A program made the translations under genes and the position numbers. This document shows positions 8,301 to 62,488 of a stretch of 64,000 nt of DNA, piece by piece. The stretch comes from Selaginella moellendorffii (lineage: Eukaryota; Plantae; Lycopodiophyta). The notes under the pieces were generated by a model. The model saw nothing but the letters and a program-made list of their open reading frames with translations. It was not told the origin of the DNA and made no database searches. The DNA is taken from assembly GCF_000143415.4 (NCBI RefSeq), contig NW_003314273.1, positions 1,312,074 through 1,376,073 of the forward strand, given 5' to 3'. Numbering within the stretch: position 1 is the first letter of the stretch; each line of letters begins with the position of its first letter.

Positions 8301-11300
8301 GTTCCACTCTTGATCAGTGAGTCATACTCGTCCTGCATGGCTGCTTGCCACTGTGAGGCATCAAGACTGGAGAGAGCAGCCTGGTAGCCACGAGGTTCAG
8401 CAATGGAGCTCATGGCCCGTAGAATCCCTTCTTGTGTGGAGCTTGAGCAAGAGATTCTAGAGCTTTGACCATTGGCTTGCTCACTTGTCCTGAATGGGTA
8501 ACAGCTCCAATCTCTTGATGAGGTGGTGGTGTAATGAGAGACTCTGGAGGAGGTGAGCAGGAAGATCCTCCAACTGTTTCTTCACCAACAAACAGCTTGT
8601 CCACAGTAGCAGCAAGATTCTGCTCAATGGATGTAGTGTTGCTGCTAGTAGCCACCGAAGTGACCAGAGGTACTGGTAGCAGCAGAGTTGCTGGAGAAGG
8701 CTCATCACCAAGTGGAGGAGGTGTTCCTCCTTCTGGAATGAGCAGCCTTTGGACTGCTGGTGCTTGTGGGTGGGTGAGCTCGTCATCCAGCACGTGGATC
8801 AAGTCTACCAGGTTAGAACTTGAAGGAATAGTACCCTGAATGTGGCAATAAAGCTCTTGCTCATTGAAAGAGACATCTCGGCTGACCACAAGCTTCTTGA
8901 GAGCAAGATTATAGAGGCAGTAGGCCTTGGAATGAGCATGATAGCCCACAAAGATGGTCTTCTGGCTCCTAGGATCCAGCTTCTGCCGAGTCGCATCTGG
9001 AATGTAAACATATGCTGTGCAGCCAAAGACCTCAAGTGCCCTAACTGAGGATGCTTCCCAGTCCAAGCCACACTAGTGCTCCTTGTGGGAAGGCGGTTAC
9101 GGATGTAAACAGCCGTATTAATGGCTTCACCCCAAAAAGAGTTGGGTATGCCTGCGTGCTGCAAAAGGCAACAAACAGTCTCTAGCAGAGTGTGATTGAG
9201 GTGCTCTGCCACGCTGTTCTGTTGGGGAGTATGGGTTGTTGTGTACTGGTGAATGATGCCAGCCTCAGCTAGAAAGTTGAGAAACTCTCTGTTCAGGTAC
9301 TCTCCACCACCATCTGTGCATAACACACAAATCTTTCAGCCAGTAGATGTCTTTGCCCAGCTCTTAAAAAGCTTAAAGTGGTTGAACACTTTGCTCTTGG
9401 TGTGGAGAAGGCTCACCACAGCGTATCTGGAATGGTCATTGATAAAAGACACAAAGTACCTCTTGCGGCTGAGTGTTTGCACTGGCAAGTAGCACACGTC
9501 ACTGTGAACCAGATCCAGTAAGCCTATAGCTTGGTCCTCCATGGTTCTTGATGGAAAAGGAAGGCAAACTTGCTTCCTAAGATGGCAAGTTTCACACATG
9601 CCTAGATAGCCAGCTGGGAGTGTGATGCCTTTAGCATGCTGGTTACAAGCTAAGGCGTGCAGATCTCGTTCATTGACATGCCCTGGACGAGCATCCCAGA
9701 GCTCAATGGTGTCTTGTGCTCAGAAAGCAAGCACTCGAGCTGGAAAAATCAGTTCTACATTTAAATGGTAAAGTGTTTCATACCTCACGCCACTGGCTAC
9801 AGGAGTACCATCACGACCATAGATGGTGCACCCTTTTGGGAAGAAGGTGGTAGTAAAGCCTTGATCTAAGGCTGCACTTATAGAAAGAACTGTCTGCCCT
9901 GCTTTAGGTACAAAGTGCACGTGATGAACCTACTTAAGAGGTTCATTGGGTAGCTTGATCACCACCATGCCACGACCTTCCACCTGGAGTGGCCACTTGT
10001 GGCTGACATAAATCTGTTGTGGAGCTTGAAGAGCCTTGTAAGTGTGAAATACAGACCTTAAGGGAGTCATGTGAAAAGAGGCACCACTATCCAGCCATAG
10101 AACCTCAAAAGTAGACACCAGTGATGGGTAAAGAGCCATCATCAACGAGTTGCTCTGGGTAAGCATGCACTGGGTGGCAGCCTTCTTTGCACGACACTCA
10201 CGCTTGACATGCCCCATCTTTCCACAATAGTTGCAAGGACCCTTTTTCTTCTTGGAGAAGTTAAATCCAGAGCTGGGAGTTGTAGCAGAAGAGATACGAG
10301 GCCCACGGCTAGTGCCTCCTTTCCTCTGCTCCCCACTCGGTTGTTTCTTACCAAGAAACAAGGCCTGCTCGCAAGCAGCTTGAGGCGATCCTTGATGGCC
10401 AGCTTGACGCTCAGCAATCTTGTGCTCTTCCTTAAGAAGATCAGAGTAGAGCTCCTCCATGGTTTTGCCTGGGACAAAAGAGAGCATGGAGGACGATTGT
10501 TGCAACTCTGGAGATACAGAGTAGAGCAAGAAGGCTTTTGCATAGTCATCAGAAACTGCAGCACTTACTTCCTTCAGCTGCTGCATTAAGCCCTTCCTGT
10601 TGCCATTGTCTCACCAGGCTGCATGCGTAGGGAGAAAGTTTTCTGGGTCAAAACCAATTTAGTATTAGCGGCTTTGGCTGCAAAGATTTGGGAAAGTGAG
10701 TCCCAATTGGCCTTGGCAGATTTTTCTAAATCAAGGAGATGAATAAATTCATCTTCAAGACCCAGTCCAATCACAGAAAGTGCTTTTTGATTCTTGGAGT
10801 CCCAAGTAGCCTGCAAGGCTGCTTCTATATCTTGAGGTCTCACTTGGGTTCCCTCCACCAAATCCCAACAATCTTTTGCCATTAAGATTAATTGGACTTT
10901 GGTCTTCCAAGTTGTGAAGTTCTTGCCTATGAACTTCTGGAAGCATAAACTTCACAACCAATAAAGAGTAGCTTTTCTCATCCTGCATCCCAGTTGCCAG
11001 CCGGGATGGCCATGGTGCTCGCTAGGGTGGTTCTAGATGTAGTGCGAGGTGGAGTACTGGTAGCCATTAGTTTCTAGAAGGAAGGACAAAACAGTGGAAG
11101 CTAGAAGCGAGGATGGGGAGGAGGCAGTGGGAATTGCTAGAAGGGACGCCCACACACCGTGCACACAGAGTGACAATTAGGGCAGAGGCACGGATGGACA
11201 TCACATTGCACTCGCTTGCGTTCTTGAATCCGTCGTTCCACCCTAGCAAGGACTGTGAGAGCCTTAGCGTGGTCCTGCTCGTCGCGTTGCTGTGTTTGCT

Positions 11301-13330: not shown

Positions 13331-15415
13331 AGGAGAAATCATCCCAGCGGAATGAGATGCCAAAGCCAACCGGTGAACCAACAAATCTCGCTAAGTACCA
13401 GGAGGTAGAGTATCCTACCTAACAGACGAATCTACAACCCGACAATCATCCACCTAGTAGGCGAATTGTCTTGACAGGGCAAATTATCCTACCACCGGGA
13501 GCAGACTTGAACACAGAACCGATTACTGAGGCGGTTAGAGGAGCGATTACCACCAGCAGTTGCCAACGGTTAACAAATACGAAGAACCCAAAATAGGCGG
13601 ACCAAGGACAAAGCGGTTACCACTCGGCAGTATAAATAGGATAGACGAACAGGAAAACGGATCCCCATCCCACTCACTTGTACTCGCGCTGTACTGTGCT
13701 TTTCTGATATTCAATTGAGCTGTGAGATTGCTTCCTACACTGTGTCCGGGGATCAACATTGTGTCATGCATTCTTCTTTCTCTCTTCTTTATTCTACTTC
13801 TTTACTTCTCAAGCCGACCCTCTGTTTGTCATGTTTGTAGAGGGTTTCATCTCTAGCTGGTGACCAAGGCATTTCTGTTCATCTCACTATTCTTGTACCC
13901 CATCTCGTCTGTTTTCCCCTACCCACTATTCATCCATCCCTTTCTTACCATCCTGTATTTTCTTAATCTTCCTGTCAGTGACATCACTCCTTTCTGTGCC
14001 TCCGGTGAATAGGAATTTATTTTGGTCATCACGTGGCAACCACAGTGGGATGGTTTTCATAGAATCTACGATTGCTTGAGAGTTCATTCCCTATTTCTTC
14101 TCATTTTTTGTTCTTTCCAGAATTTCCCCTATTTTTCCTATTCTACTGAGTTTTTCAATCATTTTCTTGATAGTTGTAAAAAATCCCCTAAACCAGTGTG
14201 AGATTAGTTGATCAGCAGAGTAGAGAGTACTGCTCAACGGAGTGATAAGGATTATAGGACTACCCCATCAGACGAATTTTTATTGTGGAAAATGGCATTC
14301 TTATGGGATGAAGGAGTTCTGCAGACGGCTGGAGGATTACCTTGGGAGGAAACCAAGAGGACAAGAGTGGAATGGAAGATTGTTCTTGTGCAACAACTGT
14401 GCCAAAGGAATAGCCACCTCTGCAAACTTATGCTGGAAATGTTGGTAGTAACTAGCCATTCCAAGGAAATTGCATAACTCGACCATTGTAGTTGGTGTAA
14501 GCTAGTTCTCCACCACAGCCACCTTCCTTGGATCCATCTTGACACCCTTACATGTCACAATATGGCCTAAATATTCCACCTCTAACATTGGAAATTCACA
14601 TTTGCTTTTCTTCACATAAAGTTTGCAGTCACGAAGTAACGAAAGAACCTTGCACAAATGCACCTTATGCTCCTCCATATTCTTGCTGAAAACAAAAATA
14701 TGGTCCAAGAAAATCTCTACAAACTCATGAAGATAACGCCCAAATACCTCCATCATCAACCGAGTAAATGTGGCTGGTGCATTCGCCAAACCAAATGGCA
14801 TAATTGTTGTGTTGAATGTTGTTTTAGAGATAGATGCATCATCCTTTGCAATCTGATGATATTCACTCCTCAGATCAATCTTGGTAAACACTTATGCTTC
14901 ACTAAGCTTGTCTAAGATATCATTCACACGTGGCATTAGCATCTTATCCTTCACTATCTTCTTGTTCAAGGCACGGTAGTCAATACACATTTGCATTGAA
15001 CAATCCTTCTTCTTCATAAGCAAGACCTCCACCTTCACCAACCATGGGATCCCAAGAATGGGATCCATACAATGGATATTTGCGAGATAAAAAGTCTCCA
15101 CAAGTGTGGTTTTGCCAACCAACACTTCTAGCCTCTCTACACAAGCATCGAAATGTTGAGTAAAGGTAGTTGCACCTTCCACTGTGTATGGAAGAACTCT
15201 ATGTGTGACTAGGCCATGCTCCATAACAAACTTTGCCAAAACAAAGTTGTCATCGCTCCCACTATCCAATAAAATCCGCACTGGACCACCACGGAACGTG
15301 CCCTCCAGCATTAAAGCTGATTCACGTGTATCTTCAAGCTTCATCTTGTTCCACACATAGTTGAGTTGACGAGCAACGATTGAAAGCCTCTTCCTCTGAC
15401 TGGAATGGTCGTCCC

Positions 15416-18400
15416 TGTTAGGCGCCAGCTTTGACTACGTGGTCAACATCAGTCAAAGGGAGGCTCAAGGGTATAAGCACCAAACATACACTTACTTGGT
15501 TGCATAAATCCAAACTCAAGTAACTTCTTGATTTATTTTGCTCCTCCGAATAACTTAACTGAAATGGACGCCGGTAAATTGGCTGTGTCTCCGGCTCCAA
15601 CATAATCCCATGCTCCACACCTTGTAATAGAAGCAACCCATGAGGAAGTTCAAATGGAAAAACATCAGAAAACTTGCCGAGTACATTTCGTATTGTTGCT
15701 TCTCCCCCCCACATGCCTTGGTCCCCCACCCCAAGTCATGAACAAATAGCAAGTAACTTGAAAGTGCTTTTCCATTACAACAAACTTGCTTTAAAGATGT
15801 AGCAGAGAGCATTACAACTGGAGGTTGAACTCCCTCTCCAAACAACATATCTTTAACACTACTGTACTCTAGCGAAACATGTTTAATACTCCACTCCCGC
15901 TCGGGGGTGGTTGGGTGGTGAGGAACCTCAAGAGGTGGCGTAGCATAGTCTAGGGCGGCTAGATCTTTGTCTTTTTGCACCGGATCATAACATTGGTATC
16001 AGAGGAGTTGGTTGCGATGGCCGACCAAGCTGAACACTGGAATCCTATTGTCGATGGTGGTGTTGACAATGGTGCTAACGAAGCTACGGAGATTTGGACC
16101 ATTCAAGATGTGGTTCATGAGCTGCGAGCCCTTAACCAAAATCAGCAAGAGATGCAAGACGGGATGCATGGCATGATGGATACCATGTGTGGGCGTGTTG
16201 AGGCACTCGAGGCTGGACGGGGTAGCACTCCAAGTAAGCCTTCTTTGGTAGATCGACTCAAGATTCCAACTTTTTCCGGTGATGGTGGTGTGGACGAGTG
16301 TCTCGCTTGGCTAGCCAATGTGAAGAAGTTCTTGGCTGCTAGGGGAACTCCAGATGCAGAGGCTTTAGTGGCTATTCCGATGGTTTTGTGTGATGCGGGT
16401 TTTCGATGGTGGAATTGGATTGAGGAGTCCCATGTTGCAAATAAAAAACCATCAGTGTCTACCATGGATGAGTTTGAGGCTGCTTTCTGTTTACGTTTTG
16501 CCCCTCATTACGATGTGGAGAATGCTCGTATAGAACTTCGCCATTTTTAGCAAGGGAAAATGACGCTCGGGGATTATATTGAGAAGCTTACTCACTTGAT
16601 TAGTCGTGTTCCAACGAAGGATCCAGATCAGAAAAAGTCCTACTTCATTGATGGCTTACATAGTGAGAGCATGCGACAACACTTGCATCATTCTCAGCCT
16701 ACAAAGAGTTTGGAGGAGCTCTTTGATGCGGCTCGTCGACTTGACAATGACAAGCACAAGTCTCGCAAGCGTTTGCAGAGTCCTTCTGTCGAGAATCGTC
16801 GTGATGATCACTGTGGACACAAGGATGGGAACAAGTATCACAAGTTGAAGTCGGTGGTGACTACCTCGGATGCAAAGGGGTCCAAGAAGCAGAAGTTCTT
16901 TGTGAAGAATTATAGACAGGGTTGTCATCATTGCGGCGAACTTGGACACTACAAGGCTGATTGTCCGCAGTTGAAGAACAAGCAGTAGGACAAGAAGAAT
17001 GGCCAATCTTCTTCTCACAGTAAGTTAGATACTAAAAAATTGCAAACTTTGCAGCGTGAGGATGAGGAGAACGACCATTCCGGTCGGAGGAAGTGACTTT
17101 CGATCGTTGCTCGTTAGCTCAACTGTGTGTGGAACAAGATGGAACTCGAGGATACGCGTGAATTAGCTTTAATGCTGGAGGGCGTGTTCCGTGGTGATCC
17201 AGTGCGGATTTTACTGGATAGTGGGAGCGATGACAACTTTGTTTCGGCAAAGTTTGTTGTGGAGCATGGCTTGGTCACACGCGGAGTTCTTCCATACACA
17301 GTGGAGGGTGTAGCTACCTTTGCTCAGCATTTCGATGCTTGTGTCGAGGGGCTGGAAGTGTTGGTTGGCAAAACCACACTTGTGGAGACTTTTTATCTCG
17401 CGGATATCCATCGTGTGGATCTCATTCTTGGGATGCTATGGTTGGTGAAGGTGGATCTAGAGATAAAGTGGAGCATTAAGTGTATCTTGCTGGAGTATGG
17501 TGGCGTTAAAGATGTGTGGTTTGGTGAGGGCGTTCAACCTCTAGTTGTTATGCTCTTTGCTACATCTTTGAAGCGGGCTTGTCATAATGGAAAAGCACTT
17601 TCAAGTTACTTGCTGTTTGTTCGTGACTTGGGCGACCAAGGCACGTGTGGGGGAGAAGCAGCAGTACGGGATGTACTAAACGAGTTTTCTGATGTTTTTT
17701 CACATGAACTTCCGCATGGGTTGCCTCCATTACGAGGTGTGGAGCATGGGATTACATTGGAGCTGGGGACACGGCCCATTTACCGGTGTCCATTCTGGTT
17801 AAGTTATGCGGAGGATCAAGAAGTTCAACAACAAGTCAAGGAGTTACTTGAGTTTGGATTTATTCAGCCAAGTAAATCTCCGTTTGGTGCTCTGGTCTTG
17901 CTTGTGAAGAAGAAGGATGGTTCAATGCAGATGTGTATTGACTACCATGCTTTAAACAAGAAGACAGTGAAGGACAAGATGCCGATGCCACGTGTGGATG
18001 ATATCCTGGACAAGCTTGGTGAAGCACGAGTGTTTACCAAGATTGATCTGAGGAGTGAATATCATCAGATTGCAATGGATGATGCATCTATCTCCAAGAC
18101 GGCATTCAACACAAGCTTCAGACATTTTGAGTTTACAGTTATGCCGTTTGGTTTGACGAATGCACCCGCCACATTTACTCGGTTGATGATGGAGGTATTT
18201 GGGCGTTATCTTCATGAGTTTGTGGAGATTTTCTTGGACAATACTCGAGACAGCAAACTTTATGCAAAGAAGAGCAAATATGAATTTGCAAAGTCGGAGG
18301 TGGAATATCTATGCCATATTGTGACATCTAAGGGTGTCAAGACGGATCCAAGGAAGGTGGCTGTGGTGGAAAACTGGCCTACACCGACTACAGTGGCCGA

Positions 18401-20563
18401 GTTGTGCAGTTTTCTTGGTATGGCTAGTTACTATCGACGTTTCCAGCATAAGTTTGCAGAGGTGGCTATTCCTTTGACACGGTTGTTACGCAAGAATGTG
18501 CCATTCGAGTGGAAGAAGCCACAAGAGGAGAGTTTGGTGGTGCTGAAACGATTGTTGAGCGAGACTCCAGTGCTTCGCATTGCTGATCCATCGAAACCTT
18601 ACGAGGTGACATGTGATGCGAGTGGTTATGCACTGGGAGGAGTTCTCATGTAAGAGGGACAACCTATTGCATATGAGAGTCGAACTTTGAATTCTGCGGT
18701 GCAACGCTATTCCACATATAAGCAAGAGTTACTCTCTATTGTTCATGCTTTGCGGATGTGGCGGCACTATCTTTATGGTGCAGTGTTCATGGTGTTGATA
18801 GATCACAAACCTGTTGTGTATCTTTTCACATAGAAGGAGTTGAACACTAGGCAAGCTTGTTGGATGGTCAAACTCATGGAGTTTGGGGAGTTTCCTATTG
18901 AGCATCGTCCGGGAAAATCAAATGTGGTGGCAGATGCTTTATCTCGTGTTCGTCATGTGACCACGTTACAAACACAATTTTGTCATCATTTGAGTAAGGT
19001 GGTCAGCGAGTTTGGGCAGTTAGTTGAGCATGCTCAGGCTTAGGATGTTGAGGTGGCCTCTTTGCGAGACCAGATAGAAGCTCCTTTCTCATTGGTGGGT
19101 GGGATTCTCTACTACAATGGCTGTGTATATTTGCCATGGGTGGATGTGTTAATTACTCACGTTTTATTCCACTATCATGATCGTCCAGAGGTTGGTCATT
19201 TTGGGGGGAAGAAGACGTATGAGTTGATTAAGCGCAACTTTTATTAAAGGAATATGAAGGCTGATATCCTCAAGTATTGTAAATCATGCTAGCTTTGTCA
19301 GTGGGTTAAGGTGCCACGGGAGAAGCTGGGGGGACTTTTGCAACCTTTACCTATTCCTCAGAGCCATTGGTGTAGTATCTCTATGGACTTCATTAGTTGT
19401 TTGCCACGAACACAGAGGCAAAAGGAGCAAGTATGGGTCATAGTGGATCGATTGACGAAGTATGTGCAGTTGTTGGCTCTTCGGAAGACTGTCACTGCCT
19501 CAGACTTGGCTGCAGTTTACTTGGAGAAGGTTTTTCCTGATTTTGGTTTGCTAGAGGACATCATTAGTGATCAAGATTCAAAGTTCACCAATGGATTTTG
19601 GAAAAACTTTGCAAAGGCTATGCAAGTGACTTTGAAACTCTCGAGTGGAGATCATCCTCAGATGGATGGGCAAACCGAGCGTGTGAATCAGGTGGTGGAG
19701 GATATGCTACGTTGTAGCATTGGTCAAAGGCAAGGACAGTGGGATTTATATCTTCCGTTGGTGCAATTTGCTTACAACAATAGCCAACACAGTGGAACCA
19801 AGCTAAGTCCTTACTTTGCCATGTTTGGAAGGCATTCTCAAATAGTGGTGGAGTTGGGATTTGCATCCGAGGCAACTGATTTGGCCACAGAACTTGATGA
19901 GATTCTGGTGGTGTGCAAATGGAATTTGCAAGCAGCTCAGGATAGAGCGGAGAAGTTTGCCAATGAGCATTGCCAATTCCGGGAATATAAGGTGGGTGAT
20001 TTCATCTTTGTGCGCGTGATCTTTCCGTCAAGTGAGCGGCGGAACACCTTGGTGCCTTTATGGACAGGGAAGAGTGATAAACTTTCCCATCGATATGCTA
20101 GTCCATATGAAGTGTTGGAGCGCATTGGTAAAGTCGCTTATCGGGTGCGGCTACCAGTTGGGGTGAAAATTCATCCGGTATTTTATGTTAGCCAGTTGAA
20201 GGGTGTACTATTTTGGAGTGACGGGCCCAATGCCTCCTTGATGTATACGGCTGTGGACGATGGATCAGGAGCTTGAGCAGGATTCCCCAGAAAGGGTGAT
20301 CACCGGTACAACTCATTCTTGGGACAAGGACTTTGTTGGGGGGGGAAGAATTGTTAGGCGCCAGCTTTCAAAGGGAGGCTCAAGGGTATATTAAGGCATG
20401 TTAGGGTAAGGGACTTAACCTACCCTAAGGCTCACAATGGAGCGGCGGTGTAGTGGAGCTTTTGAGGTAGCTCGGGGGTGGTTGGGTGGTGAGGAACCTC
20501 AAGAGGTGGCGTAAGATAGTCTAGGGTGGCTAGATCTTTGTCTTCTTGCACCGGATCATAACA
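15416..20563 (+). mobile_element. Near full-length family-1 Ty3/Gypsy element (B)
   Basis: 5' LTR 15416-15992 (interrupted by an inserted pol fragment), PBS tggtatcaga at ~15994, PPT ~20337-20350, 3' LTR 20352-20563. TSD GTCCC at 15411-15415 and 20564-20568. Confidence 0.95.
16017..20276 (+). pseudogene. Single-frame gag-pol polyprotein of element B with premature stops; no chromodomain
   Basis: ORFs at 15975, 16560, 17127, 18840, 19053 and 19311 share one frame. Domains: gag, CHHCGELGHYKADC zinc knuckle, LDSG protease, RT (with an in-frame deletion after FLDN), RNase H (VTCDASGYALGGVL), integrase with GPY/F. Confidence 0.92.
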
Positions 20564-23213
20564 GTCCCTGTCATCCTTATGTTGCAAAGTTTGCAACTTT
20601 TTAGTATTTGATTTACCGTCAATAGAAGATTGGCCATTTTTCTTGCTTTGTTGCTTGTTCTTTAGCTGTGGACAATCAACCTTACAGTGTCCAAGCTTGC
20701 TGCAATAATGATAACCTTGTCTATAATTCTTCACAAAGAACTTCTTCTTTGACCCCTTTGCATTCGAAGTAGTCACCATAGACTTCAACTTGTGGTGCTT
20801 ATTCCCATTCTTGTGTCCACGGTGATCATCACAATGATTATTGAGAGAAAGACTCCTCGAATGCTTGCGAGACTTGTGCTTGTTATTGTCAAGTCAACAA
20901 GCTGCATCAAAGTGCTCCTCCAAACTCTTTGTAGGCTGAGAATGACACAAGTGTTGCCACATGCTCTCATTATGAAGGCCATCAATGAAGTAGGACTTGT
21001 TCTAATCTAGATCCTTCGTTGGAACACGGTTAATCAAGTGAGCAAGCTTCTCAATATAGTCCCCAAGTGTCATTTTCCCTTGCTGAAAATGTCAAATTTC
21101 TGTACGAGCATTGTCCACATCGTAGTCAGGGGCAAAACATAAATAGAAAGCAGTCTCAAACACATCCATGGTAGACACTCATGGTTTTTTATCCATAACA
21201 CAAGACTCCTCAAGCCAATTCCACCACCGCAGACCAACATCACGTAAAATCATTAGAATAGCCACTAAACCCTCTACATCTAGAGTTCTCTAGCAGCCAA
21301 GAACTTCTTCACATTGGCTAGCCAAGCAAGACACTCATCCACACCACCATCACTGGAAAAGATTGGAATGTTGAGTCGATCTACCAAGGAAGGCTTACTT
21401 GGAGCGCTACCACGTCTAGCCTTGAGTGCCTCAACATGCTCACGCATGGTATCCATCATGCCATGCATCTCGTCATGCATCTCTTGCTAATTCTAATTAA
21501 GGGCTCGTAGCTCATGAACAACATCTTGAATAGTCCAAATCTTCGCAACTCCATCGGCACCATCTTCGGCACCACCATAAACAATAGGATTCCAGCGTTC
21601 AGCTTGGTCAGCCATCGCAACCAACTGTTCTGATACCAATGTTATGATCTGGTGCAAAAAGATAAAGATCTAGTCGCCCTAAACTATGCTACGCCACCTC
21701 TTGAAGTTCCTCATCACCCAACCACCTGGTTTCCTCATGATCTTGGACTCAATCTCAGTCTTGGAGTCAGTCTCATACTTGACCTCGAACTCGGTTCCTA
21801 CTTTGTCCATGCAAAGCTACCACAAACCAATTGAATCAATCCATCCCAAAGATTATGTCAAATTTTGCCATGTTCAACATAACAATGACAATGTCCTCAT
21901 TGTCCTCTGATACCAATGTTAAAATCTGGCACTAAAAGACAAAGATTAGTCCCAATATAGTGAAATCCCTTTTTACTTTCCATGTCCCCACTTTGACTCT
22001 TGCTTGTCGAAGTACCTCATTAATGCTTTGGCTACCTTGAACAAACTTTATTGTCCTCGGTTCGCCTAGTTGCTGCACTATTAGTCTGGCTTGCCAGACT
22101 ATATCTGCAACCACAAAATTATCCAAAACACCCGTGTTAATAAAGATCTTAACAAAGTTACCTTTGAACTTCCCTCGGAGGGCTAATAAATGTTGCAAAC
22201 AACTCTCTACCAAAATTGCTCATGTAATGAGTAACTTTGAGCTAGGGACTGAATCACATACCTCAATTTGGTTTTTAACTGACTTAATGGCAATATTGAC
22301 TCTAACCTTTTTCGGGTAGGGACATTCTCTAAAAAAGTGTCATGTTTCACCACAGTTGAAGCATTCATTGTTTCCCACACTAGTAGCCAACTTGACCTTC
22401 TTATTTGTCAATTTGTCCCTTTTTGCCTATGTACTTGCTTGCTAGCCATCGGATTTGCCTTTCTGAAAGCCTGAGAACTCATTTTTAAAGAAACTCTTTT
22501 TGAATTTTCTTTTGCCATATGTCCCCTTTGGTTTGGCTCCTTTGCTGAAAATGGATCTCGGCCCTGTTGTGTTCCCCTTTCGCAGGTTATCATTGAAATG
22601 CACCTTAATAGCCGCATCCAATTCTTCTTTGTAGTTAATTGGGTTCCAACACATCACCTTGCCTCAAGCCCAGGTTTGCAAGTCTGATATGAAGGCATAG
22701 AACACATCCATATCACCCATATCTATGACAAATATCCTTTTTGCTATAAACGCATTCATATACTCTTGAATAGTTCCAGTTTGCTTCAGCCTACTCAACT
22801 CATCCGTTAAGTGTAAAGTGTAAGGAACCAACTCCCTATGGTTGCTATGACTAAGGTCAAAGCTATGACTAAGGCTAGTGGGGGCTTGTTACAAAGCATC
22901 CCAATTACAAATCGTCCATGGAAATGTCTTACGATGGACTTCATCACGGGACTCCCCTCAAGCGAGGGGTTCGATGCAATATTCGTGGTGGTGGACCAAT
23001 TTTCAAAGTTGGCACATTTCATACCCACCACAATGGAAGTGGATGCGGAAGGTGTGGTGAAGCTATTCTTCAAACAAGTGGTTCGAGTGCGGGGAAGGCC
23101 AGGAGAGATTATCTCAGATCGAGACAAGATCTTCACCAGTAGGTTCTGGAGAACTCTCATGGAATAGTATCGCACCAAGTTGAAATTTAGCACAGCCTAT
23201 CACCCACAGACAG

Positions 23214-23260
23214 GTATTGGGTATTAAGTCAAGTTTGACGGCACTAACACTTCTTGACAG
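23214..23260 (+). other. Predicted spliceosomal intron 1 (47 nt) in the integrase catalytic core
   Basis: cac cca cag aca g|GTATTGG...CACTAAC...TTCTTGACAG|ac gga caa aca gaa. Removal restores [17 protein letters not shown] ends and a CTAAC branch point are present. Confidence 0.85.
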
Positions 23261-23670
23261 ACGGACAAACAGAATAGGCAGCTGGAGGATTATTTGTGAT
23301 GCTATGTCTCGGGAGACCAGACATATTGGGTAAGTCATTTGGGACTTGCGGAAATGTGTTATAACAACTCACCACATTCAAGTATCGGGGTGAGTCCATG
23401 GGAAATCATCAATGGGCGAGCTATTGAAGGTCCTATGGAACTTGGCGTGGCCGAGTATCATGAAGAGTTACCTGTAGAGGAGGCATTCACGGTGGAAAGA
23501 CTCAACATTTGGAATCTAGTGAGGGATTCCTTGAAATGGGCTCAACAAAGGTAAACCAAGTACGTGAACCAGAAGTGCCGGGATGTAGAGTTCCAAGCTG
23601 GGGAGAAGGTGTGGCTGAACACCAAGAACCTCAGGCTACCAAGTGGGATCAGCCAAAAGTTGACCCAAAG

Positions 23671-23722
23671 GTAAAAGGACATGTATTCCTGTAAATCAAT
23701 TAATCTTGAGTTCCTTAAGCAG
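23671..23722 (+). other. Predicted spliceosomal intron 2 (52 nt) in the integrase GPY/F module
   Basis: aag ttg acc caa ag|GTAAAAG...TTCCTTAAGCAG|g ttc gca ggg cct tat. Removal restores SQKLTQ-R-FAGPYE. Confidence 0.88.
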
Positions 23723-26700
23723 GTTCGCAGGGCCTTATGAGATTGAGGTACGAATCGGTAAAGTGTCTTACCGTCTCCGACTTCCTCAACAGATGGGGAA
23801 GATGCACCTAGTGTTCCACGTGAACTTACTCAAGCCGTACTTTAAGGATCCACTTTGCAAGGACCAAATAAGACCTTTACCTGAGGTTATCCAAGGGGAA
23901 GAGGAATACGAAGTCGAGGCCATCCTCAATGCCCGCAAGAGCAAGTAACAAAGACATGAGGTGAGAGAGTTCCATGTGAAGTGGAAAGGATTTCCACATT
24001 GCAAAGCAATATGGGAATTGAAGGAAAACCTATTGAATGCACAAGATCTAGTGGAGGAATTTTTGCAAGATAGAACTCTATGCATTTATGCAAAATTCAA
24101 TTAAAGAATCTATTTGTGAAGTTGAGCAATGGCATATGTTAGGACCCAAAGGCGCGCCGAAGGTAAGCTAATTAGCATGGGTTAGCTAAATCGACCAGGC
24201 ATAGTGAACTACGCCTGACTCCCCACGGGGATGTCGAATTCGTAGACGTATTCTACAGAGGTTGGGTTCGAGTTCCAACCCCCTAGTAAAGCAAGGTTGG
24301 GTTCAAATCCCAACCCCATACTAGGGCATGGTGGGGTGAGGGGTATAGGGACACCTATATTCCATTGTCATGGGCTCTTGGCCAGGGAGGCTAACTTAGG
24401 CACAGTGCTAAGTGGGGGGATGCCCCCAGAGACATGGTCAACAAGTCGTAGGATAAAAAGAGACGTTCGATAAGGGCATCGAACTTCTTCCATGGGTGGT
24501 GGAGTTGTAAGGAACGAACTCCCCGAGGTGTCATAGGCTAAAGGATCCACGAAAGCATGACCGAAATGACAAAGAGTTCATCGGATGGGACCGAGTCTGA
24601 GATCGAGTCCAAGACCGACTTTGAGACCGAGTTCAAGATAGAGTCCGGGTCCGAGTCCGAGGCCGACTCGGAGACCGAGTTCAAGGCCGAGTTTGAGACA
24701 GAGTCCGAGATCCGAGATCCGAGATCGGGTCCGACACCGAGTCCAAAGTCGAGTTCAAAGTCGAGTATGAGATCGGGTCTGAGATCGAGTCAAGGACCGA
24801 GTCCGAAATCAGGTCTGAGATCGAGTCCAAGATCGAGTCCGAGACCAAATCCGAGTACTAATACAAGTCAAGGGGTGAAAGCCCAAAGCATGCATCTCCC
24901 GGGGGGGGGGGGGGGGGGGGGGGGAGGGGGCTGCAGGCTGTTCCAAAAGTATAGTAGGGATAGGGAGGTCCAGGAACCAGTCTTGAAGGAACTTTCCAGT
25001 GGTGCTTCCAAACTGACTTGAGGTTGAGACTGGGGCCGAGGGGCCTTGGGTGGGAGTGAGCATGGACTCGGGTGGTGTCGGAGGGGCCACCCAAAGAAGT
25101 GCTCAAAAGCAGCTCCCACTCCCGAAAGGGAAACCGACTGTGGTGCTCCCGACTCATGTGGAGTGGTGCCCCACTTGAGTACCTTGTGGCTCATTAATCC
25201 TCACCCTTCCTAGGGGCTTGGGCCTTCCCTTTGGGATGGAAGTTTGGGGGTAGAGGTACCCATACCGGGCCGTTAGGCCACGGTGTTTCGCCCCGGCTTT
25301 CCAAAGCAAGTGTTGCACCCAAGGCTTGGGATTTAGAGGGTCCCATGATCAAGTCTTGTTAAACCAAGGGATGTTAGGAACCTGGATGCTTGGTGTGCTT
25401 GGCTACTTGTGCCTGCGAGGAGTGTAGCCGAACCTTAAGTCTAGTCTAACCCGGGGAAGGGGATTGGGAGAGATTTGGGAATTCGTGGATGGATGGCTAA
25501 CGCTCTGTTGTTCGTGTAGTGACTAGCTGAAACTAAGTAGGACCAAGTAGGAGCTGGTACAATAGATGGGAACCTTGGCGAGGGAACTTAGCAAAAGCCA
25601 AGGCAGTGTTGGTCCGATAGACGAGGTAAGCTGGCAAATTGGAAATGAAAAATTTCAGGCTTACATAGAGTAGCATTTGAAGGAACGTAAGTCATGTAGA
25701 TCCTTACCTTCATCATTTCCCAAGTGGCCACTAGTCCTTCATTGGCCTTTCTTGTTCTCCACCAAGACTTGGCATTATCTGCCAAGTATGGTTTGCATAT
25801 AAGACAATCTCTGAGCTCGGTAATCGCAATGCTCAGAAGTAATCCTCCATATTATAAAATCAATTTTCCACCACTTTATAGTCATTCACTCCTTTGAAGA
25901 CCAGTGGGGGCTTTGGTTTGTACTTGGGAACTACTTGAGGGACTGATTCCACTTCAGTTTGTTTGACCTTATCCGGTTCTGCCTTAGTCCCCACCAAATG
26001 GTGCATGCCTTTTGCGCTGTTAGCATCTACAGTCTTTTGCTTTTTCTTCTGCTTCTCGTCATGTTTAGCTTGTATACGAGAGTCTCCAGTAGGTCATTGG
26101 TTAGTGCCAATAGTCCTTCTAGAATGTTCAATCGAACCTTGGATGACCGAACCTCACCACCGGACTTCTGTTTGGAACTTTCCTCACGAAGTACTCCTCA
26201 TATAAGGATTCCTCATCCATAGCTTCCTTTTCAATTGAAAGCTCTATCTCTAAAGGAGGTTTTGTCTCTGCCTTGGTTCATTTATGCTTTGCCTTTGCCA
26301 TCTCTCAGCAATCCACCTCTATCCTTCGCTAGAATTGAGGAAAAAAGCTCTGATACCAAATTGTAAGCCACCATTTTTTCCTTTTCAATTTGCTAGCTTA
26401 CTTCATACATCCAACCACCACAGCTTTGGCTTTAGTTAAGTTCCCTTGCCAAGATTCCTGCTTATTGTATTACCTCTTACTTGGTCATACTTGGTCTTAG
26501 CAACTCACTACACGAGCAATGGAGCGTTAGCCATCCAACCACAAATTCCCAAATTCTCTCCCAATCCCCCTTCCTGGGAGGATTGGATTGGACTGGACTT
26601 AAGGTTTGGCTACACTCCCTGTAGGCACAAGCAGCAAAGTAAACCAAGCCTTCAGGTTCCTAACATCCTTTAGTACAACAAAGTTTGGTCATGGGACCTT

Positions 26701-27754
26701 CTAAATCCCAAGCCTTGGGTGTAACACTTGCTTCAAAACACCAGGGGGAAACACCGTGGCCAAATGGCCCGGTCTACCACCAATAGAAGAAGTTCAATGC
26801 CCACATTGAATGTCTCTTTTTAATCTTACAACTTGTTGACCATGTCTCTAGGGGCATTCCCCCACTTAGCGGTGTGCCTAAGTTAGCGTCCTTGACCAAG
26901 AGCCCATGACAACGAAATATAGGTGTCCCTATACCCCTCACCTCACCATGCCCTAGTATGGGGTTGGGACTCAAACCCAACCTCCGTAGAATACATCTAC
27001 GGATTCGACATCCCCATAAGGAGTCGGATGTAGTTCCCTACGCCTAGTCGATTTAGCTAACTGATGCTAATTAGCTTATATTTGGCATAATTTTGAGTCC
27101 CATTATATAATATTGCTCAATTCCTCAAATAGAATCTTTAACTGAATTTTGCATAAATGCAGAGTTCTACCTTGCAAAAATTTCTCCACTAGATCTTGTG
27201 CATTCACTAGGTTTTCCTTGAATTCCCATATTGCTTTGCAATGTGCAAATGTTTTCCACTTCACATGGAATTCCCTCACCTCACATCCTTGTTTCTTGCT
27301 CTTGCGCGCATTGAGGATGGCCTTGACTTCATATTCCTCTCCCCCTTGGATAACCTTAGGTAAAGGTCTCACTTGGTCCATGCGAAGTGGATCCTCAAAA
27401 TATAGCTTGAGTAAGTTCACGTAGAACATAGGGTCCATCTTCCCCATCTCGCGAGGAAGTCGGAGGCGGTAAGGCACTTTACCAATTCGAGCCTCAATCT
27501 CATAAGGCCCCGTGAACCTACTGTGAGACACCAAATCCCTAGGCCCCAAAGTGGAGCTGGAAGGGCGCCACATGGTAGTGGCCGAAGCGAGAGCCAAACG
27601 AGCGTAACACGTTTGGACCAAAAGCTCCGACTTGAAAAGTCAAGAGCGGGAGTGGAACTCCCAACGAAGTGCTCGAGGAACGAGCATGAAGCGAGCAAAA
27701 GGCGAGGCTCCAAAAAGGGACCCAAAAGGACCAACACATGACACATGGGAGTGT

Positions 27755-28280
27755 CCGAGATGGACTCGAGTTGGAGTCCGAAGTGGAGTCCGAGATGGAC
27801 CCGAGTTGGAGTCCGAAGTGGAGTCCGAGATGGACCCGAGATGGAGTCCGAGATGGAGTCCGAAGTGGAGTCCGAGGTGGACCCGAGATGGACCCGAGTT
27901 GGAGTCCGAAGTGGAGTCCGAGATGGACCCGAGATGGAGTCCGAGATGGAGTCCGAGATGGAGTCCGAAGTGGACCCGAGATGGACCCGAAATGGAGTCC
28001 GAGATGGAGTCCGAGATGGACCCGAGATGGAGTCCGAGATGGAGTCCGAGATGGACCCGAGATGGACCCGAGATGGAGTCCGAGATGGAGTCCGAGATGG
28101 AGTCCGAAGTTGAGACCGAGACCGGGACCGAGATCGAGACCGAGACCGAGACCGAGACCGAGATCGGAACCGAGACCGAGACCGAGGCCGAGGCCGAGAC
28201 CGAGCCCGAGCCCGAGTCCGAGTCCGAATCCGAGTCCGAGTCCGAGTCCGAGTCCGAGTCCGAGTCCGAGTCCGAGTCCG
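27755..28280. repeat. 6/12-bp minisatellite in the LTR ((GAGATGGAGTCC)n grading into (GAGACC)n and (GAGTCC)n); second copy 33658-34183
   Basis: Read directly from the sequence. It produces low-complexity ORFs in all six frames. Confidence 0.95.
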
Positions 28281-31200
28281 GAGCCTGAGAGGGTGAAAGC
28301 CCAAAGCGTTCGTCTCCCAGACCCTGGGGGGTTTGGTGAGCTCCAAAAGTATAGTAGGGGGAGGACTGCAGTGGAGCCAGTTTGGCCAGGAAAGGCCAGT
28401 TTGGCCGAGGAAGGCCGGACCCAGTGTTGGGTGATGAGCTGCCCACTGGGAAGTCCAAGACTAGAGTGAACACGGACCGACAAGTGGGGTAGCTTGGTGA
28501 AGTGTTCAAGAGCCGGCTCTAGTTCCCCCGGGAGATCGACTGGCCGATGCTCCCAGTCCAAGTGTGGGTGGCACTACCTACTTGGATACCTGTCGTGGCT
28601 CAACGGAACCTCGCTCTAAGCCCATGGCTAGAGCACCTAAAGGCGAAAGACGAGGAGAGTACCCAGGTGGCTCGCGTAAGGCCACGGTGTTCCGAAATGT
28701 TGTCCCAAAGGCCCAGACTGTGGAAAGGAAGAGGAGCAGTCCTCTGGGGTAGTGACCAAGGACACAGTCGTGTGGTGAGGAAGTCCCAGAGGGCCGTGGG
28801 ACTTAGTGGTCGGGCCTGTGGGTCTCGATCCAGTGGCAGTGTTGGCAAACACGGCCAGGGGCAGGAAGGGACTTAGTGGGGACTGACCGAGGGATATTGG
28901 GGAAGGCTATTCCCCTTGTCGGTGGGCATCCTAAGGATGCTAAGGAGTGGATCTGAGATGACCACTCACGGATGGTTTGCCTAGTCTTGGAGAGCCAAGA
29001 CGGGGATGCAAGTGGTATTGGACTACCAGTGTGGCAAAGGTGATTGGGCATGGCCTTAGCGTAACAGGCCGCTATGTCGGTGGTACCTTTGAGTGTCGGT
29101 CATGGGATCGGACACGTGGAGCACTTGGACCAAGTGCAAATGTTGAGTGGCATGGATGCCATTCTCGGGGCTAGCAAGTCCCAAGTCCTGGATTGGACTT
29201 ATGGAGGTTGTGAATGAGACTCCTCCAAGTGGTCAGAGGTGTGGTTAAGTGACTAAAGTAGAATGGAAAATTTAGTCGCTTACAACTTGGTATCGGAGCT
29301 GTTCCTTAGTCCGACTTTTATTGGTGCTCAAGTATATCACCACTAGTGTTGGCATCGGAAGGTCCGAGGAGTGGGCCTATCCTTGAGGAGTAGCAAGTCG
29401 GGAAGACATGGCTCTCCATTACAGTTCATGTGTGAACTTGTAGACGAGGTGGTGGATAGAAAAGGGCCAATAATGGAACGACTTTGGGATCTTGGGAACA
29501 GTATATGGTTTTCCTCAAAGAGTTGAGGATGTGATCCAGACGAGCGTTTGACTTAGCAAACTGGCTAATGTAGTTGTGGTAAACAACTAAAGTTGGGATC
29601 ATGGGAAAGATAAAGACTCCAAAGCAATAAAGGAGTCACAAGATTTTCCTCATATAGTTGAGGTTGGTGCTCATGAATGTGAGACCAGAAGCGATGACCG
29701 TGAGAGGTCAAGTATGGATGAGGACACGAGTCCTTGAAATGGTAGCCGGGGCTACCTCTAATAAATGCTGGAACAACCCAAGGAGTTGGGGGTGTATTAA
29801 GTGGATGAGTTGGTATTCTCATCACATGGACAAGTAGTCCTAAGGGGCAAAGGTTGCCCCCAGAGAACAAAATCAAGTGTCGGAGTAACACTTGTGAAAA
29901 TAGTCCTTTTGAGTAGGACAGGAATGCAAGAAGTGTATTCCAGTGAGCTAGTGCCTCACAAATAGGACCTTACGGGTCTGTGGATTAACCAAGTCCAAAA
30001 CTGCTGGATGACTCAAGTGGAGTCAACGGATGGTCCTAAAAGGACTGATAGAAGCATTTGGACTGAGGTGTGTTGTACCCCACAAAGGATGGGGGGGGAT
30101 CATAGGATCCAAGGATGAGAACAGAGGGTATCTCATCGATGGCAAAATGTGCCATGCTAAAGTCGTGGGAAAGGTATTCCCAAAAAGAAAACAACTTTGA
30201 CACAAAGTTGTGTGTGACCTCTATGGTGCAGTGCTAACGGATGGTTGGCATGAGAAAGAGCGGTGTTGGTCTTGGCAAAGACTTAGACACAAAGAAGAAG
30301 TGTCATAGAGGTAGGCTCGTGGAGCCGATGGTGTGGAGACACCAAATGTGCCAAGGTGTGATACCTTGAGGCTATGTTGGTGGGTTCATGAGAACCCCTT
30401 GCCAAAGGAATCCCAATGGAAATGGGAATGGCATAGCCTAAGCTGCAGAGCATGCAGTTGGAGTGTGGTGACCCAAATAATGATGGAGGTGTGAAAGCAC
30501 CAAGCAATGAGTTGTAGGACTTGACAACTATGAGGCAACTAAGCAAGAGGTGCAAAATAACTGGTTAAACGGGTAGAAGGTAGCTACCCAAGACTTCTAG
30601 CATAGGGAAGTCGGATATACCCTTGCGGGGGATAAGTTGCTTATGTTGCGATATAGTAAGTCAATGTCATAAAAGGAAATACTCATTGTCAAGAAAGCCA
30701 TCATTGGGACACCTGAACACTCTAGAACACCAGAAGGTGGTGTTTGATGTCGCGAGGGCAATGGATAAAGCCCAAGGGACTAAGTCCCTAGCGAATGATG
30801 GATAGAAGGTGCTATCCAAATGTCCAAGGTTGCGGAGACAGGAGAGGACTGTCTACCCAAGTTGGACAAAGCCAAAAATGGAATTTTGGCAAGGCTAGTG
30901 ATGGGCATGTAAAGGCCCATAAGCAACAATGTAATCCCAGTGTGTGGGATTATAAGGTGAGCATACCCGGATTGAGGAACCACTCCCTGGGCTATTGGGT
31001 AGGTTCATCCCTAAGAATACTTGTTAAGGCATGATAGAAAGTGCAAAGCTATCCTCCTGATCTGGAGGAGAATGACCGAAGGAAAGGTGTGAAGCCAAAG
31101 GCAAGTAGTATTGGGATGGAACTGAACCATAGAAATCGAAGGGCATAACCAAGGTTGGTTATGCCAGCTGGGAGTGGGGAATCAAGTGGGGGCTCAAGGG

Positions 31201-33189
31201 TGTTGCCGCTAGCAACCGTGATGCCATGGAGAGTCTAAGTTATGGAATTGTCCATGTTAGACTATGTGGCATTTGGAAGGCTTGCAAAAAGGGAGGCCTT
31301 AGCAAGCTAAGGGACAGAGTTCCTTCAAGGTTCCCAAAGATGATTCTAGGTAGCTTAGTACCTAGAAAGGCCAAGTGTAAATGGTTCATGGAACGCGCGA
31401 AATCAGAGTGGCGCAGCAGAAGCGTGGTCTTGAAGCTTGCCATGAGGCAAGGCTATCAAGGTTAGGGAAGTAGTTCCCGAGTGTTCAAGGAGAGGGCTTT
31501 GAACGAAAGTCAATGGTCAAGGACTTTCACGCTTATGCAGGAACCATGTTACAGTGGTTGGAGGACTTGCCAAGCGAGATTGGCATGTCGGGGGAACAAA
31601 TACCCTAGTTGAAGGTGATAACTTCAAAAAGGGTGGGCCATGGGGCCGAGCATGGAGGAGTCCATGCATGATCACAGACATGTCAAGTGAGAGGACTTGG
31701 CAGTGTGGAGGAACTAGGTTCCTAAGCTGTGATCTGTAGCGCGCTTTAAAAATAAGTTGGTGCACCGGCGTGGGGAGTCACGCCAGGCATCTTGTGTGAT
31801 GCCGTCCGTAGATGCATATACGGAGGTTGGGTTCGAGTCCCGACCCTCTAGTGCTTGGGTTCGAGTCCCAAATCACTAGGGCGTGGTGATGGTTTGGAAT
31901 ATGAGGACACTCATATTTCGGTGGTCATGGACTCTCAGTGGGGAGACTGGTTTGGGCACACCGCCAAGCGAGGGATGCCTCGGAGTCGTGATGCACGGTT
32001 AGATTGCTTAGTGTGAAAGCTTAGCATATCTAACTTGAATGCTTTGGTGCAAGTGGCACCAAGGTCGTGGTGAGTGAGATGGGGACACCTAATCTCAGTT
32101 GCTATGAACCCTTGGCCGTAAGGGCTGGCTTGGGTGCACCGCCAAGTGTGGGGGATGCCCCCGGGGTTATAGTCAACAACTTGGAGGTCTAGAAGACCAA
32201 GTACCTCTTGGCAACTCTGTTAAAGTGCCAAGGTGAGATCACTAGGTGATCTTATGGCCAGATAAGGACAAGGTCCTTGGTTGGCTAAGGAACGAAGTTC
32301 CTGGTTCAAAATGTTGAAATTGAACTATTTAAGGTGGTGTGTCCTGGTCGTGATGACCAAGTGGGAAGATCACCTAAGGGAAATAAACTATGTCCGTGCG
32401 ATGGCATAGTGAGTCCGAGGAAAGTAGTCTCTATAAAAGACCCATGGGAGGGTCACGAAGTTGGGCCGTGGATAGAGCCCATAGCAGAAGATGCTAAGGA
32501 GACGTACTAGGGGTGAACATCCTCCGGACTTGGCAAAGAAGAGTCTTTGCTATGGAACCGAAACAATACCTCAAGAAGGGAGGTAGAGATTCAATGTTGC
32601 TTGGTGCAACAATCAACGGATAGGAGCAAAAGATGAGTGGCCAAGATAGGGCCGTGGAATCCCTTGGAAGGAATCCAAGTGACAAAGTTAGGCGAGGAAC
32701 ACTAATGTGTTGGACGCTAACAAGTTGTGAAAAAGGAAGTGTGTTTCCAAGGAGGGATTCCGAAATGCTCCGATTTGGCGAAAGTGGAAGCTCCAAGGGA
32801 GGGAGTGGTAAGGTAGCCAAATGATAGGGCCATGAACAGCCCTAGCACAAAGTATGATAACTGGAACTTTGGCACGAAATGGAAGAGAGGATGATGGTGC
32901 CCTCGAGTAGAGAACTTCCTAGGATGGGAAGTGGAGTTGCACAAAAAGGTGCAAGGCAAGGTGTCGGAGACACCTAGGAAATTGACTCCAAGAAGTCAAA
33001 ATTCAAAGTTCCAAAGTGCAAAGGTTATATCGATGGAAATCGAGACTACTCGAGAAGGAGTAGTGGGATTGACTTAGAGAAGGGTCTCTAAGAGGTTTAG
33101 CGAGGACTAAATCAATAAAAGGAGAGAACCACTACATGTGGTCCAATCAATCTCTAAGTTGGAGAGACTACCCTCCTTAGAGGATAGGC

Positions 33190-33318
33190 AAGGCATGGTG
33201 AGCCTTTGATGTCAAACCATGGAGGCCTATGCAAAAGGCATGGTGAGCCTTCAATGTTAAACTATTGACGAATATGGAGAAGGCATGGTGAGCCTTCAAT
33301 GTCAAACCATTGACAAAT
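33190..33318. repeat. Three ~45-bp direct repeats upstream of the LARD PPT
   Basis: aaggcatggtgagcctt(t/c)(g/a)atgt(c/t)aaac at ~33190, ~33235 and ~33280. Confidence 0.8.
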
Positions 33319-35188
33319 ATTGGCTAGGTGCCAAGGATGGAAATGGTAACACACGCGAGTGTTACTTTACAAGATGGTTTACCGTTCGATGAGGACATCG
33401 AACTTCGTCTATGGGTGGTGGAGTTGTGAGACACCAAATCCCTAGGCCCCAAAGTGGAGCTGGAAGGGCGCCACATGGTAGTGGCCGAAGCGAGAGCCAA
33501 ACGAGCGTAACACGTTTGGACCAAAAGCTCCGACTTGAAAAGTCAAGAGCGGGAGTGGAACTCCCAACGAAGTGCTCGAGGAACGAGCATGAAGCGAGCA
33601 AAAGGCGAGGCTCCAAAAAGGGACCCAAAAGGACCAACACATGACACATGGGAGTGTCCGAGATGGACTCGAGTTGGAGTCCGAAGTGGAGTCCGAGATG
33701 GACCCGAGTTGGAGTCCGAAGTGGAGTCCGAGATGGACCCGAGATGGAGTCCGAGATGGAGTCCGAAGTGGAGTCCGAGGTGGACCCGAGATGGACCCGA
33801 GTTGGAGTCCGAAGTGGAGTCCGAGATGGACCCGAGATGGAGTCCGAGATGGAGTCCGAGATGGAGTCCGAAGTGGACCCGAGATGGACCCGAAATGGAG
33901 TCCGAGATGGAGTCCGAGATGGACCCGAGATGGAGTCCGAGATGGAGTCCGAGATGGACCCGAGATGGACCCGAGATGGAGTCCGAGATGGAGTCCGAGA
34001 TGGAGTCCGAAGTTGAGACCGAGACCGGGACCGAGATCGAGACCGAGACCGAGACCGAGACCGAGATCGGAACCGAGACCGAGACCGAGGCCGAGGCCGA
34101 GACCGAGCCCGAGCCCGAGTCCGAGTCCGAATCCGAGTCCGAGTCCGAGTCCGAGTCCGAGTCCGAGTCCGAGTCCGAGTCCGGAGCCTGAGAGGGTGAA
34201 AGCCCAAAGCGTTCGTCTCCCAGACCCTGGGGGGTTTGGTGAGCTCCAAAAGTATAGTAGGGGGAGGACTGCAGTGGAGCCAGTTTGGCCAGGAAAGGCC
34301 AGTTTGGCCGAGGAAGGCCGGACCCAGTGTTGGGTGATGAGCTGCCCACTGGGAAGTCCAAGACTAGAGTGAACACGGACCGACAAGTGGGGTAGCTTGG
34401 TGAAGTGTTCAAGAGCCGGCTCTAGTTCCCCCGGGAGATCGACTGGCCGATGCTCCCAGTCCAAGTGTGGGTGGCACTACCTACTTGGATACCTGTCGTG
34501 GCTCAACGGAACCTCGCTCTAAGCCCATGGCTAGAGCACCTAAAGGCGAAAGACGAGGAGAGTACCCAGGTGGCTCGCGTAAGGCCACGGTGTTCCGAAA
34601 TGTTGTCCCAAAGGCCCAGACTGTGGAAAGGAAGAGGAGCAGTCCTCTGGGGTAGTGACCAAGGACACAGTCGTGTGGTGAGGAAGTCCCAGAGGGCCGT
34701 GGGACTTAGTGGTCGGGCCTGTGGGTCTCGATCCAGTGGCAGTGTTGGCAAACACGGCCAGGGGCAGGAAGGGACTTAGTGGGGACTGACCGAGGGATAT
34801 TGGGGAAGGCTATTCCCCTTGTCGGTGGGCATCCTAAGGATGCTAAGGAGTGGATCTGAGATGACCACTCACGGATGGTTTGCCTAGTCTTGGAGAGCCA
34901 AGACGGGGATGCAAGTGGTATTGGACTACCAGTGTGGCAAAGGTGATTGGGCATGGCCTTAGCGTAACAGGCCGCTATGTCGGTGGTACCTTTGAGTGTC
35001 GGTCATGGGATCGGACACGTGGAGCACTTGGACCAAGTGCAAATGTTGAGTGGCATGGATGCCATTCTCGGGGCTAGCAAGTCCCAAGTCCTGGATTGGA
35101 CTTATGGAGGTTGTGAATGAGACTCCTCCAAGTGGTCAGAGGTGTGGTTAAGTGACTAAAGTAGAATGGAAAATTTAGTCGCTTACAC

Positions 35189-35239
35189 CTACTTAAAAAA
35201 CTCAATATCAGTTCATTTCCAGAAATACATGCATTTTAC
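35189..35239 (-). other. Intron 2 homolog (51 nt) in copy G
   Basis: Minus strand cccaaag|GTAAAATGCATG...TTTTTTAAGTAG|g. The downstream exon (FTGPYE) continues at 27517 beyond the insertion. Confidence 0.8.
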
Positions 35240-62126: not shown

Positions 62127-62234
62127 AAATAGATTTTGTTGCAAGAATGACAAGCTTTTAGGGTAAATCAGAACCGTTCTGAAGCTTACGTGTGTGACAA
62201 AGTGAAATGGAATTAAAGTTAACATTATTTCTAT

Positions 62235-62441
62235 TCATTGATGCTGTTCAATCCGCCCTTGTCTAAACTTCTGCCTCCCATTTTGTGCACTTTCTTTTCG
62301 ACAAGCCATTCTTGAAATCCCTGCAGCAAGAAGTGATCTCATCTGAGGGTCTGTCATTTTGAGTAATCGCATTACCTTAAGCCACGAAATGAGTTTTGCT
62401 TCACATTGCAGCAACAGCTTTCGCACGTTATCATCCTCAGT

Positions 62442-62488
<47 letters not shown>

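Follow-up and report, generated by a model that had tools for sequence, protein, structure and literature searches.

Probable spliceosomal-type introns in the integrase gene of a Selaginella moellendorffii chromovirus family

We analyzed a 64,000-nucleotide stretch of the Selaginella moellendorffii genome (contig NW_003314273.1; hereafter the window) that carries copies of a chromovirus, a Ty3/gypsy long terminal repeat (LTR) retrotransposon, whose integrase gene is interrupted by two short inserts. These inserts are very probably true introns of the spliceosomal type. They are present family-wide and are retained through retrotransposition, as supported by DNA sequencing depth and a published consensus of the family. 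We favor a reading, with a probability of roughly 0.6, in which spliced RNA makes a working integrase and unspliced RNA is reverse-transcribed. An initial annotation of this DNA, made from the sequence alone, had proposed much the same. Its claim of spliceosomal-type, family-wide introns kept through retrotransposition is upheld by DNA depth, the published consensus and one RNA read, whereas splicing of intron 2, packaging of unspliced RNA only and a regulated switch stay at the level of proposals.

The inserts and their uninterrupted relatives

The family shows the gag-protease-reverse transcriptase (RT)-RNase H-integrase order and the C-terminal chromodomain of chromoviruses. Both inserts are seen in the copy that we call E, and intron 2 recurs in copies C and G, as first annotated (Table 1). 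Re-examination of the sequence also confirmed the positions, lengths, GT-AG ends and CTAAC motif originally given for the inserts. CTAAC lies 17 nt from the end of intron 1, and a YTRAY motif is found 17-26 nt from the end in all four element introns and, within the range scanned, in four of 12 host introns. The description of the inserts as AT-rich stands only in part, with a mild rise in AT content (60-73%, against 54% in the coding flanks).

The inserts are of host size. As a control we used the sucrose-phosphate synthase (SPS) gene of the window, one exon of which is 100% identical over 235 aa to a Selaginella moellendorffii protein. Its 12 introns measure 40-65 nt (median 49; 57-77% AT), and the element introns, at 47-52 nt, match them, as had been proposed. 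For inserts of equal composition, the chance of GT..AG ends at any equivalent placement is at most 0.029 for intron 1 and at most 0.017 for intron 2, giving a joint chance of about 5 × 10⁻⁴ at most. GT and AG are kept across the three window copies, a sample too small to demonstrate selection.

Read-through of intron 1 meets an in-frame stop after four codons, and read-through of intron 2 meets an in-frame TAA at 23672 that overlaps the donor. By their GT..AG ends, host-like size, branch-like motif and restoration of the frame upon removal, the inserts group with U2 spliceosomal introns. A second spliceable insert would presumably be unneeded in an element already killed by the first, which favors the reading above. 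Models of intron gain include insertion at proto-splice sites. The direct repeats that bound both inserts (5 nt at intron 1 and 4 nt at intron 2) would fit such a gain, with the splice consensus accounting for part of them.

Comparison with uninterrupted homologs places the inserts precisely. Alignment gaps fall exactly at both of them, bearing out the earlier claim that precise removal restores conserved motifs. At site 1 the gap amounts to 13 codons, which is 47 nt after subtraction of 8 nt missing from E immediately downstream; at site 2 it appears as a frame change. We then compared the best 80 of 540 confirmed related metagenome loci, using a script that flagged copy E at both sites. None of the 77 loci covered at site 1 has an intron-size insert (76 are contiguous and one has a 1-nt shift; three were not covered), and the same holds for all 73 covered at site 2 (72 contiguous, one with a 4-residue insert; seven not covered). 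By the alignment and the script, two other families of the window, families 1 and 3, likewise have an uninterrupted integrase, in agreement with the initial annotation for the site-1 motif.

With the window's uninterrupted family as query, the site-1 motif aligns with the integrases of Ty3 and foamy virus, and its last Glu is presumably catalytic. Among 150 representative proteins, D/N-G continues after the motif in 86, differs in five and has no pattern match in 59. Protein searches returned no close family member: the best match reached 59%, a match over most of the query 51%, and the best among the 150 representatives 56%. Two scans of viral contigs returned no relatives.

Table 1. Features of the element family and of the host control gene, in window positions
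Feature	Position	Strand	Description
Copy E	22819-25665	+	5' LTR stub, integrase, 3' LTR 24506-25665; nested in gag of another copy of the same family
Exon 1 end, copy E	22853-23213	+	Integrase core (rve), first two catalytic aspartates
Intron 1, copy E	23214-23260	+	47 nt, GT..AG, phase 1; inside HPQT-D-G motif, just before the third catalytic residue
Exon 2, copy E	23261-23670	+	Rest of integrase core and start of SH3-like domain; published 'ORF2'
Intron 2, copy E	23671-23722	+	52 nt, GT..AG, phase 2; inside integrase SH3-like domain
Exon 3, copy E	23723-24104	+	End of SH3-like domain and chromodomain; published 'ORF3'
Copy C	47451-54287	-	LTRs of 1139 and 1147 bp, 95% identical; perfect target-site duplication (TSD) of 5 bp; tRNA-Met-type primer-binding site (PBS)
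Intron 2, copy C	49383-49434	-	52 nt
Intron 2, copy G	35189-35239	-	51 nt; exon 3 of G continues near 27517, past a nested LTR element
SPS gene (host)	58436-62126	-	12 introns; intron-size control

The family in the published record, in DNA and in RNA

The window family is most likely the published SM1-Galahad, matched by architecture rather than by nucleotide comparison with its exemplar. The initial annotation treated the family without recognizing this, and both layout and size agree. The text of the survey that described SM1-Galahad in S. moellendorffii (Novikov et al. 2012, PMC3350952), from which we also take the placement in the Galadriel/Galahad clade, reports hundreds of copies, none of them intact, and a 7.5-kb consensus with LTRs of 1076/1146 bp, poly-G runs of 11-25 and a tRNA-Met PBS. 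It gives an open reading frame (ORF) of 1295 aa that ends in the integrase core without a chromodomain, followed by ORFs of 316 bp and of 309 bp, the latter with the chromodomain. The sister SM2-Galahad has a single ORF of 1577 aa (PMC3350952).

Our own counts run closely parallel. Summed over C and E, 1268 plus 27 upstream codons give 1295 codons to the intron-1 stop; the next stretch, to the intron-2 stop, is 318 bp (2 bp above the published value), and the last ORF is 309 bp, as published. The length of C plus its 676-bp deletion comes to about 7.51 kb. The LTRs in the window measure 1139, 1147 and 1160 bp, the G runs are 24 in E and 10 and 7 in C, and the PBS is of the tRNA-Met type. Host, size, LTRs, poly-G, PBS and the three-ORF layout with the chromodomain last thus all agree. 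Since the ORF counts match (1295/318/309 against 1295/316/309), the published multi-copy consensus has both breaks. The words 'intron' and 'splic' do not occur in the text of PMC3350952, nor do 'Galahad' and 'intron' in the text of its supplement, figures excluded. The family is therefore known and its odd three-ORF layout is on record; the intron reading is what is added here. This reading explains why the family was published as three ORFs with no intact copy, and implies that ORF-based annotation would wrongly label such families defective.

For the genomic DNA and RNA we used four of 23 listed sequencing runs: X1 (DNA), X5, and X21 and X22 (RNA), both labeled as the same species as X1. In X1, 11,453 contigs were aligned. 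Summed depth, which does not equal copy number, was 782,549 inside intron 1 compared with 804,807 and 548,280 at flanking exon positions, and 309,411-556,435 inside intron 2 compared with 262,174 and 422,285 in the flanking exons. Intron 2 is bridged in place by two X1 contigs and one X5 contig. Among the 15 strongest of 31 joints in X1 (depth 134-292), none skips either intron, and all are other deletions. Run X5, labeled as another organism, has the same family variants; it may stem from a close relative or from admixed DNA, and we do not count it as a second species. In the window itself, intron 2 is present in copy C, which has both LTRs and a perfect TSD; a copy carrying the intron therefore arose by integration.

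The RNA runs provide one observation of splicing. Five reads aligned in X21 and three in X22, from 9.2 million each. The five X21 reads give six coverage blocks, so the blocks 23168-23213 and 23272-23356 belong to one read. The former stops at the base that directly precedes the donor, and coverage at 23239 is zero. The joined read has 46 + 85 = 131 aligned letters, leaving at most 19 of 150 nt, and in other copies the exon sequence lying between the acceptor and 23272 is exactly 19 letters long; an unspliced version would need 66. One read of eight thus fits exact removal of intron 1, below the three-read threshold for a joint, and this deduced read suggests that intron 1 is spliced in vivo. 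Spliced reads had been proposed as a check in the initial annotation, and the outcome is divided: one X21 read fits the intron-1 junction, while none of the eight reads fits that of intron 2.

Several observations weigh against the reading we favor. The RNA evidence comprises just eight of 18.4 million reads, and it was bin depths, with no joint listed, that led to the spliced read. Removal of intron 2 is seen in none of the eight reads of X21 and X22; three of them enter intron 2 unspliced to about 23695 and then continue into unlike sequence, perhaps as an element fragment in another transcript. In the DNA, 16 weaker joints of the 31 lie outside the set described above, and the 8-nt gap of E could mask a contig lacking intron 1, a problem that concerns the detection of intron 1 and not of intron 2. 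Identity with SM1-Galahad is judged from architecture, and the published survey found no intact copy. Finally, for the ratio of nonsynonymous to synonymous substitution rates (dN/dS) in exon 3, three pairs give 0.35, 0.54 and 0.31, and only one of them reaches the 5% tail of a neutral simulation whose median is about 0.55.

A possible mechanism and its alternatives

A single frame runs from Gag through protease, RT and RNase H to the integrase zinc finger, so unspliced RNA would yield everything except a complete integrase. It would give a 1295-aa product without the third catalytic residue, the SH3 domain and the chromodomain. If intron 2 is spliced as well, the result would be, by arithmetic, a single Gag-protease-RT-RNase H-integrase-chromodomain product of about 1557 aa. 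Both introns would have been gained in this lineage after its split from the single-ORF SM2-Galahad.

The classic proof of an RNA stage in LTR elements is that they lose introns. Here, genomic copies keep both introns, and the template of reverse transcription must therefore mostly be unspliced RNA. The family must strongly favor copying it, since its spliced RNA, if copied, would yield an ordinary element with a single ORF, as SM2-Galahad is. Particles would thus package mainly unspliced RNA, with integrase coming from the spliced pool, in which case splicing efficiency would set the integrase dose relative to Gag and RT. Spliced RNA might be excluded by separate RNA pools, as in BARE, or by a packaging signal in an intron. 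A more far-reaching version, in which the two host-type micro-introns have been turned into a gate, with particles of unspliced RNA reverse-transcribing without integrating, spliced RNA strictly excluded and the host splicing state timing insertion, is possible but doubtful.

The introns might instead be passive passengers, real but inefficiently spliced, with a small spliced fraction supplying enough integrase and neither sorting nor regulation. Introns this small, if acquired at proto-splice sites, require no function, and the three reads that enter intron 2 unspliced, against none showing its removal, agree with this. Fit intron-less copies like SM2-Galahad should then accumulate, however, and none is listed in X1 above a depth of 134, compared with 3-8 × 10⁵ through the introns; we regard this explanation as unlikely. 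Such intron-less copies could also be the active masters, with the intron-bearing copies forming a side lineage. The deduced spliced read could derive from such a copy, and there is room for them among the 16 weaker joints and 327 loose ends outside the listed set, since contigs drop rare variants. Against this stand the depth through both introns, which equals exon depth, the two breaks in the published consensus and, as weak evidence, the lack of any family protein of at least 199 aa or at least 222 aa in two protein searches. Together these make intron-less masters very improbable.

A further explanation is that the inserts disabled the family, which would then obtain integrase in trans from a sister such as SM2-Galahad, and that splicing is incidental. 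The absence of an intact copy from the published survey (PMC3350952) is in its favor, the exon-3 dN/dS ratios would allow it, and a young non-coding LTR element in the window with the same polypurine tract suggests that trans-mobilization appears to occur here. We consider it improbable nonetheless: two independent inserts are both precisely spliceable to a conserved frame, one RNA read fits exact splicing, and the consensus described in the text of PMC3350952 keeps both its second and its third ORF open. Spread of the introns by DNA-level duplication, with no RNA step, is scarcely credible. Nothing direct speaks for it; C is bounded by two LTRs and a perfect TSD of its own, the TSD of E differs, and the copies are 10-15% divergent.

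The reading in which integrase comes from spliced RNA and unspliced RNA is the template has partial parallels. Foamy viruses make Pol, with integrase, from a spliced RNA and use unspliced RNA as the genome; there, one large intron removes gag. The window family would resemble them in drawing integrase from spliced RNA and differs in having small introns inside integrase. Ogre, also Ty3/gypsy, keeps in its genomic copies an intron whose removal from some of the transcripts completes the polyprotein, according to the text of PMC6317226 and PMC4408406. That intron, however, is a single region, on average 274 bp long, that separates gag-protease from RT, and it sets Gag:Pol (PMC6317226, PMC4408406), whereas the window family has two introns of about 50 nt inside integrase, which would gate only integrase and chromodomain, in a chromovirus. 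We rejected classification as an Ogre-type element, since gag to RT is one frame in C with no intron between protease and RT; the likeness is in principle only.

In EVADE and other Ty1-copia elements splicing separates RNA pools (PMC5580714), and in BARE a distinct RNA class is packaged (PMC3735527). As those sources describe it, the spliced RNA there codes for Gag alone and the full Pol is encoded by unspliced RNA; here the roles would be reversed, with unspliced RNA lacking a whole integrase. Penelope-like elements also retain introns through retrotransposition, and one such intron has been inferred in a Selaginella family, but they are non-LTR elements with another mechanism and introns often in the 5' untranslated region (PMC8557442, as far as its text goes). 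Plant LTR elements are generally intron-free, with Ogre and EVADE named as exceptions in the text of a 2025 review (PMC12786077).

Our literature search, mostly by titles and the beginnings of abstracts and with subscription journals, Repbase and Dfam outside its scope, found no report of introns in an LTR-element integrase, and the available text of PMC2442089 and PMC2864245 holds nothing on integrase introns. LTR elements that retain introns are known (Ogre, copia, BARE); the location inside integrase appears to be the new part. The family offers a natural system for testing how retrotransposons select RNA for packaging, and a datable case of introns gained by a sequence that would be expected to lose them.

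Element copies and other features of the window

The copies differ from one another by 10-15%. In C, one frame (with stops) spans gag-protease-RT-RNase H and the zinc finger of integrase, and Pfam Chromo (E 1.8e-16) and SH3_Tf2-1 were matched on this copy. Its 676-bp deletion lies in the integrase core; we rejected the deletion as a splice product, as its ends are not splice sites. Exon 2 of E has stops and the loss of 8 nt just after intron 1. The initial annotation had described both C and E as TSD-flanked insertions with two LTRs, which holds for C but not for E: its 5' LTR amounts to a stub of about 30 nt, and its TSD matches at four of five positions. At 22819-22866 this stub joins the integrase via a 13-nt duplication that looks like a repaired large deletion. 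The family copy that hosts E lies on the minus strand at about 21793-26773, with E inserted in its gag.

Before intron 2, E (23571-23670) and C (49435-49534) are identical at 99 of 100 positions, compared with about 90% in the intron and exon 3, possibly through gene conversion. The internal start of E nearly coincides with the start of C's integrase deletion, with about 40 nt of overlap (22853-22895 in E and 49535-49575 in C).

The young LTR element at 27523-35187 has no long ORF. Its LTRs of about 1765 bp are 99.94% identical, it has a 5-bp TSD and a tRNA-Met-type PBS, its polypurine tract is the same as that of the integrase-intron family, and its insertion in G falls exactly across the intron-2 acceptor. 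It is likely a non-autonomous partner, implying recent integrase activity. At 2130-3730 and 14383-21726 lies another gypsy family, with terminal repeats of about 90 nt; its integrase is uninterrupted and has no chromodomain at its end. Remnants of copia type (SH3_retrovirus, Pol_BBD, zinc knuckle) occupy 8410-10610. Within 58436-63360, a CT microsatellite lies upstream of SPS, and a 100-N assembly gap is found at 63260-63359.

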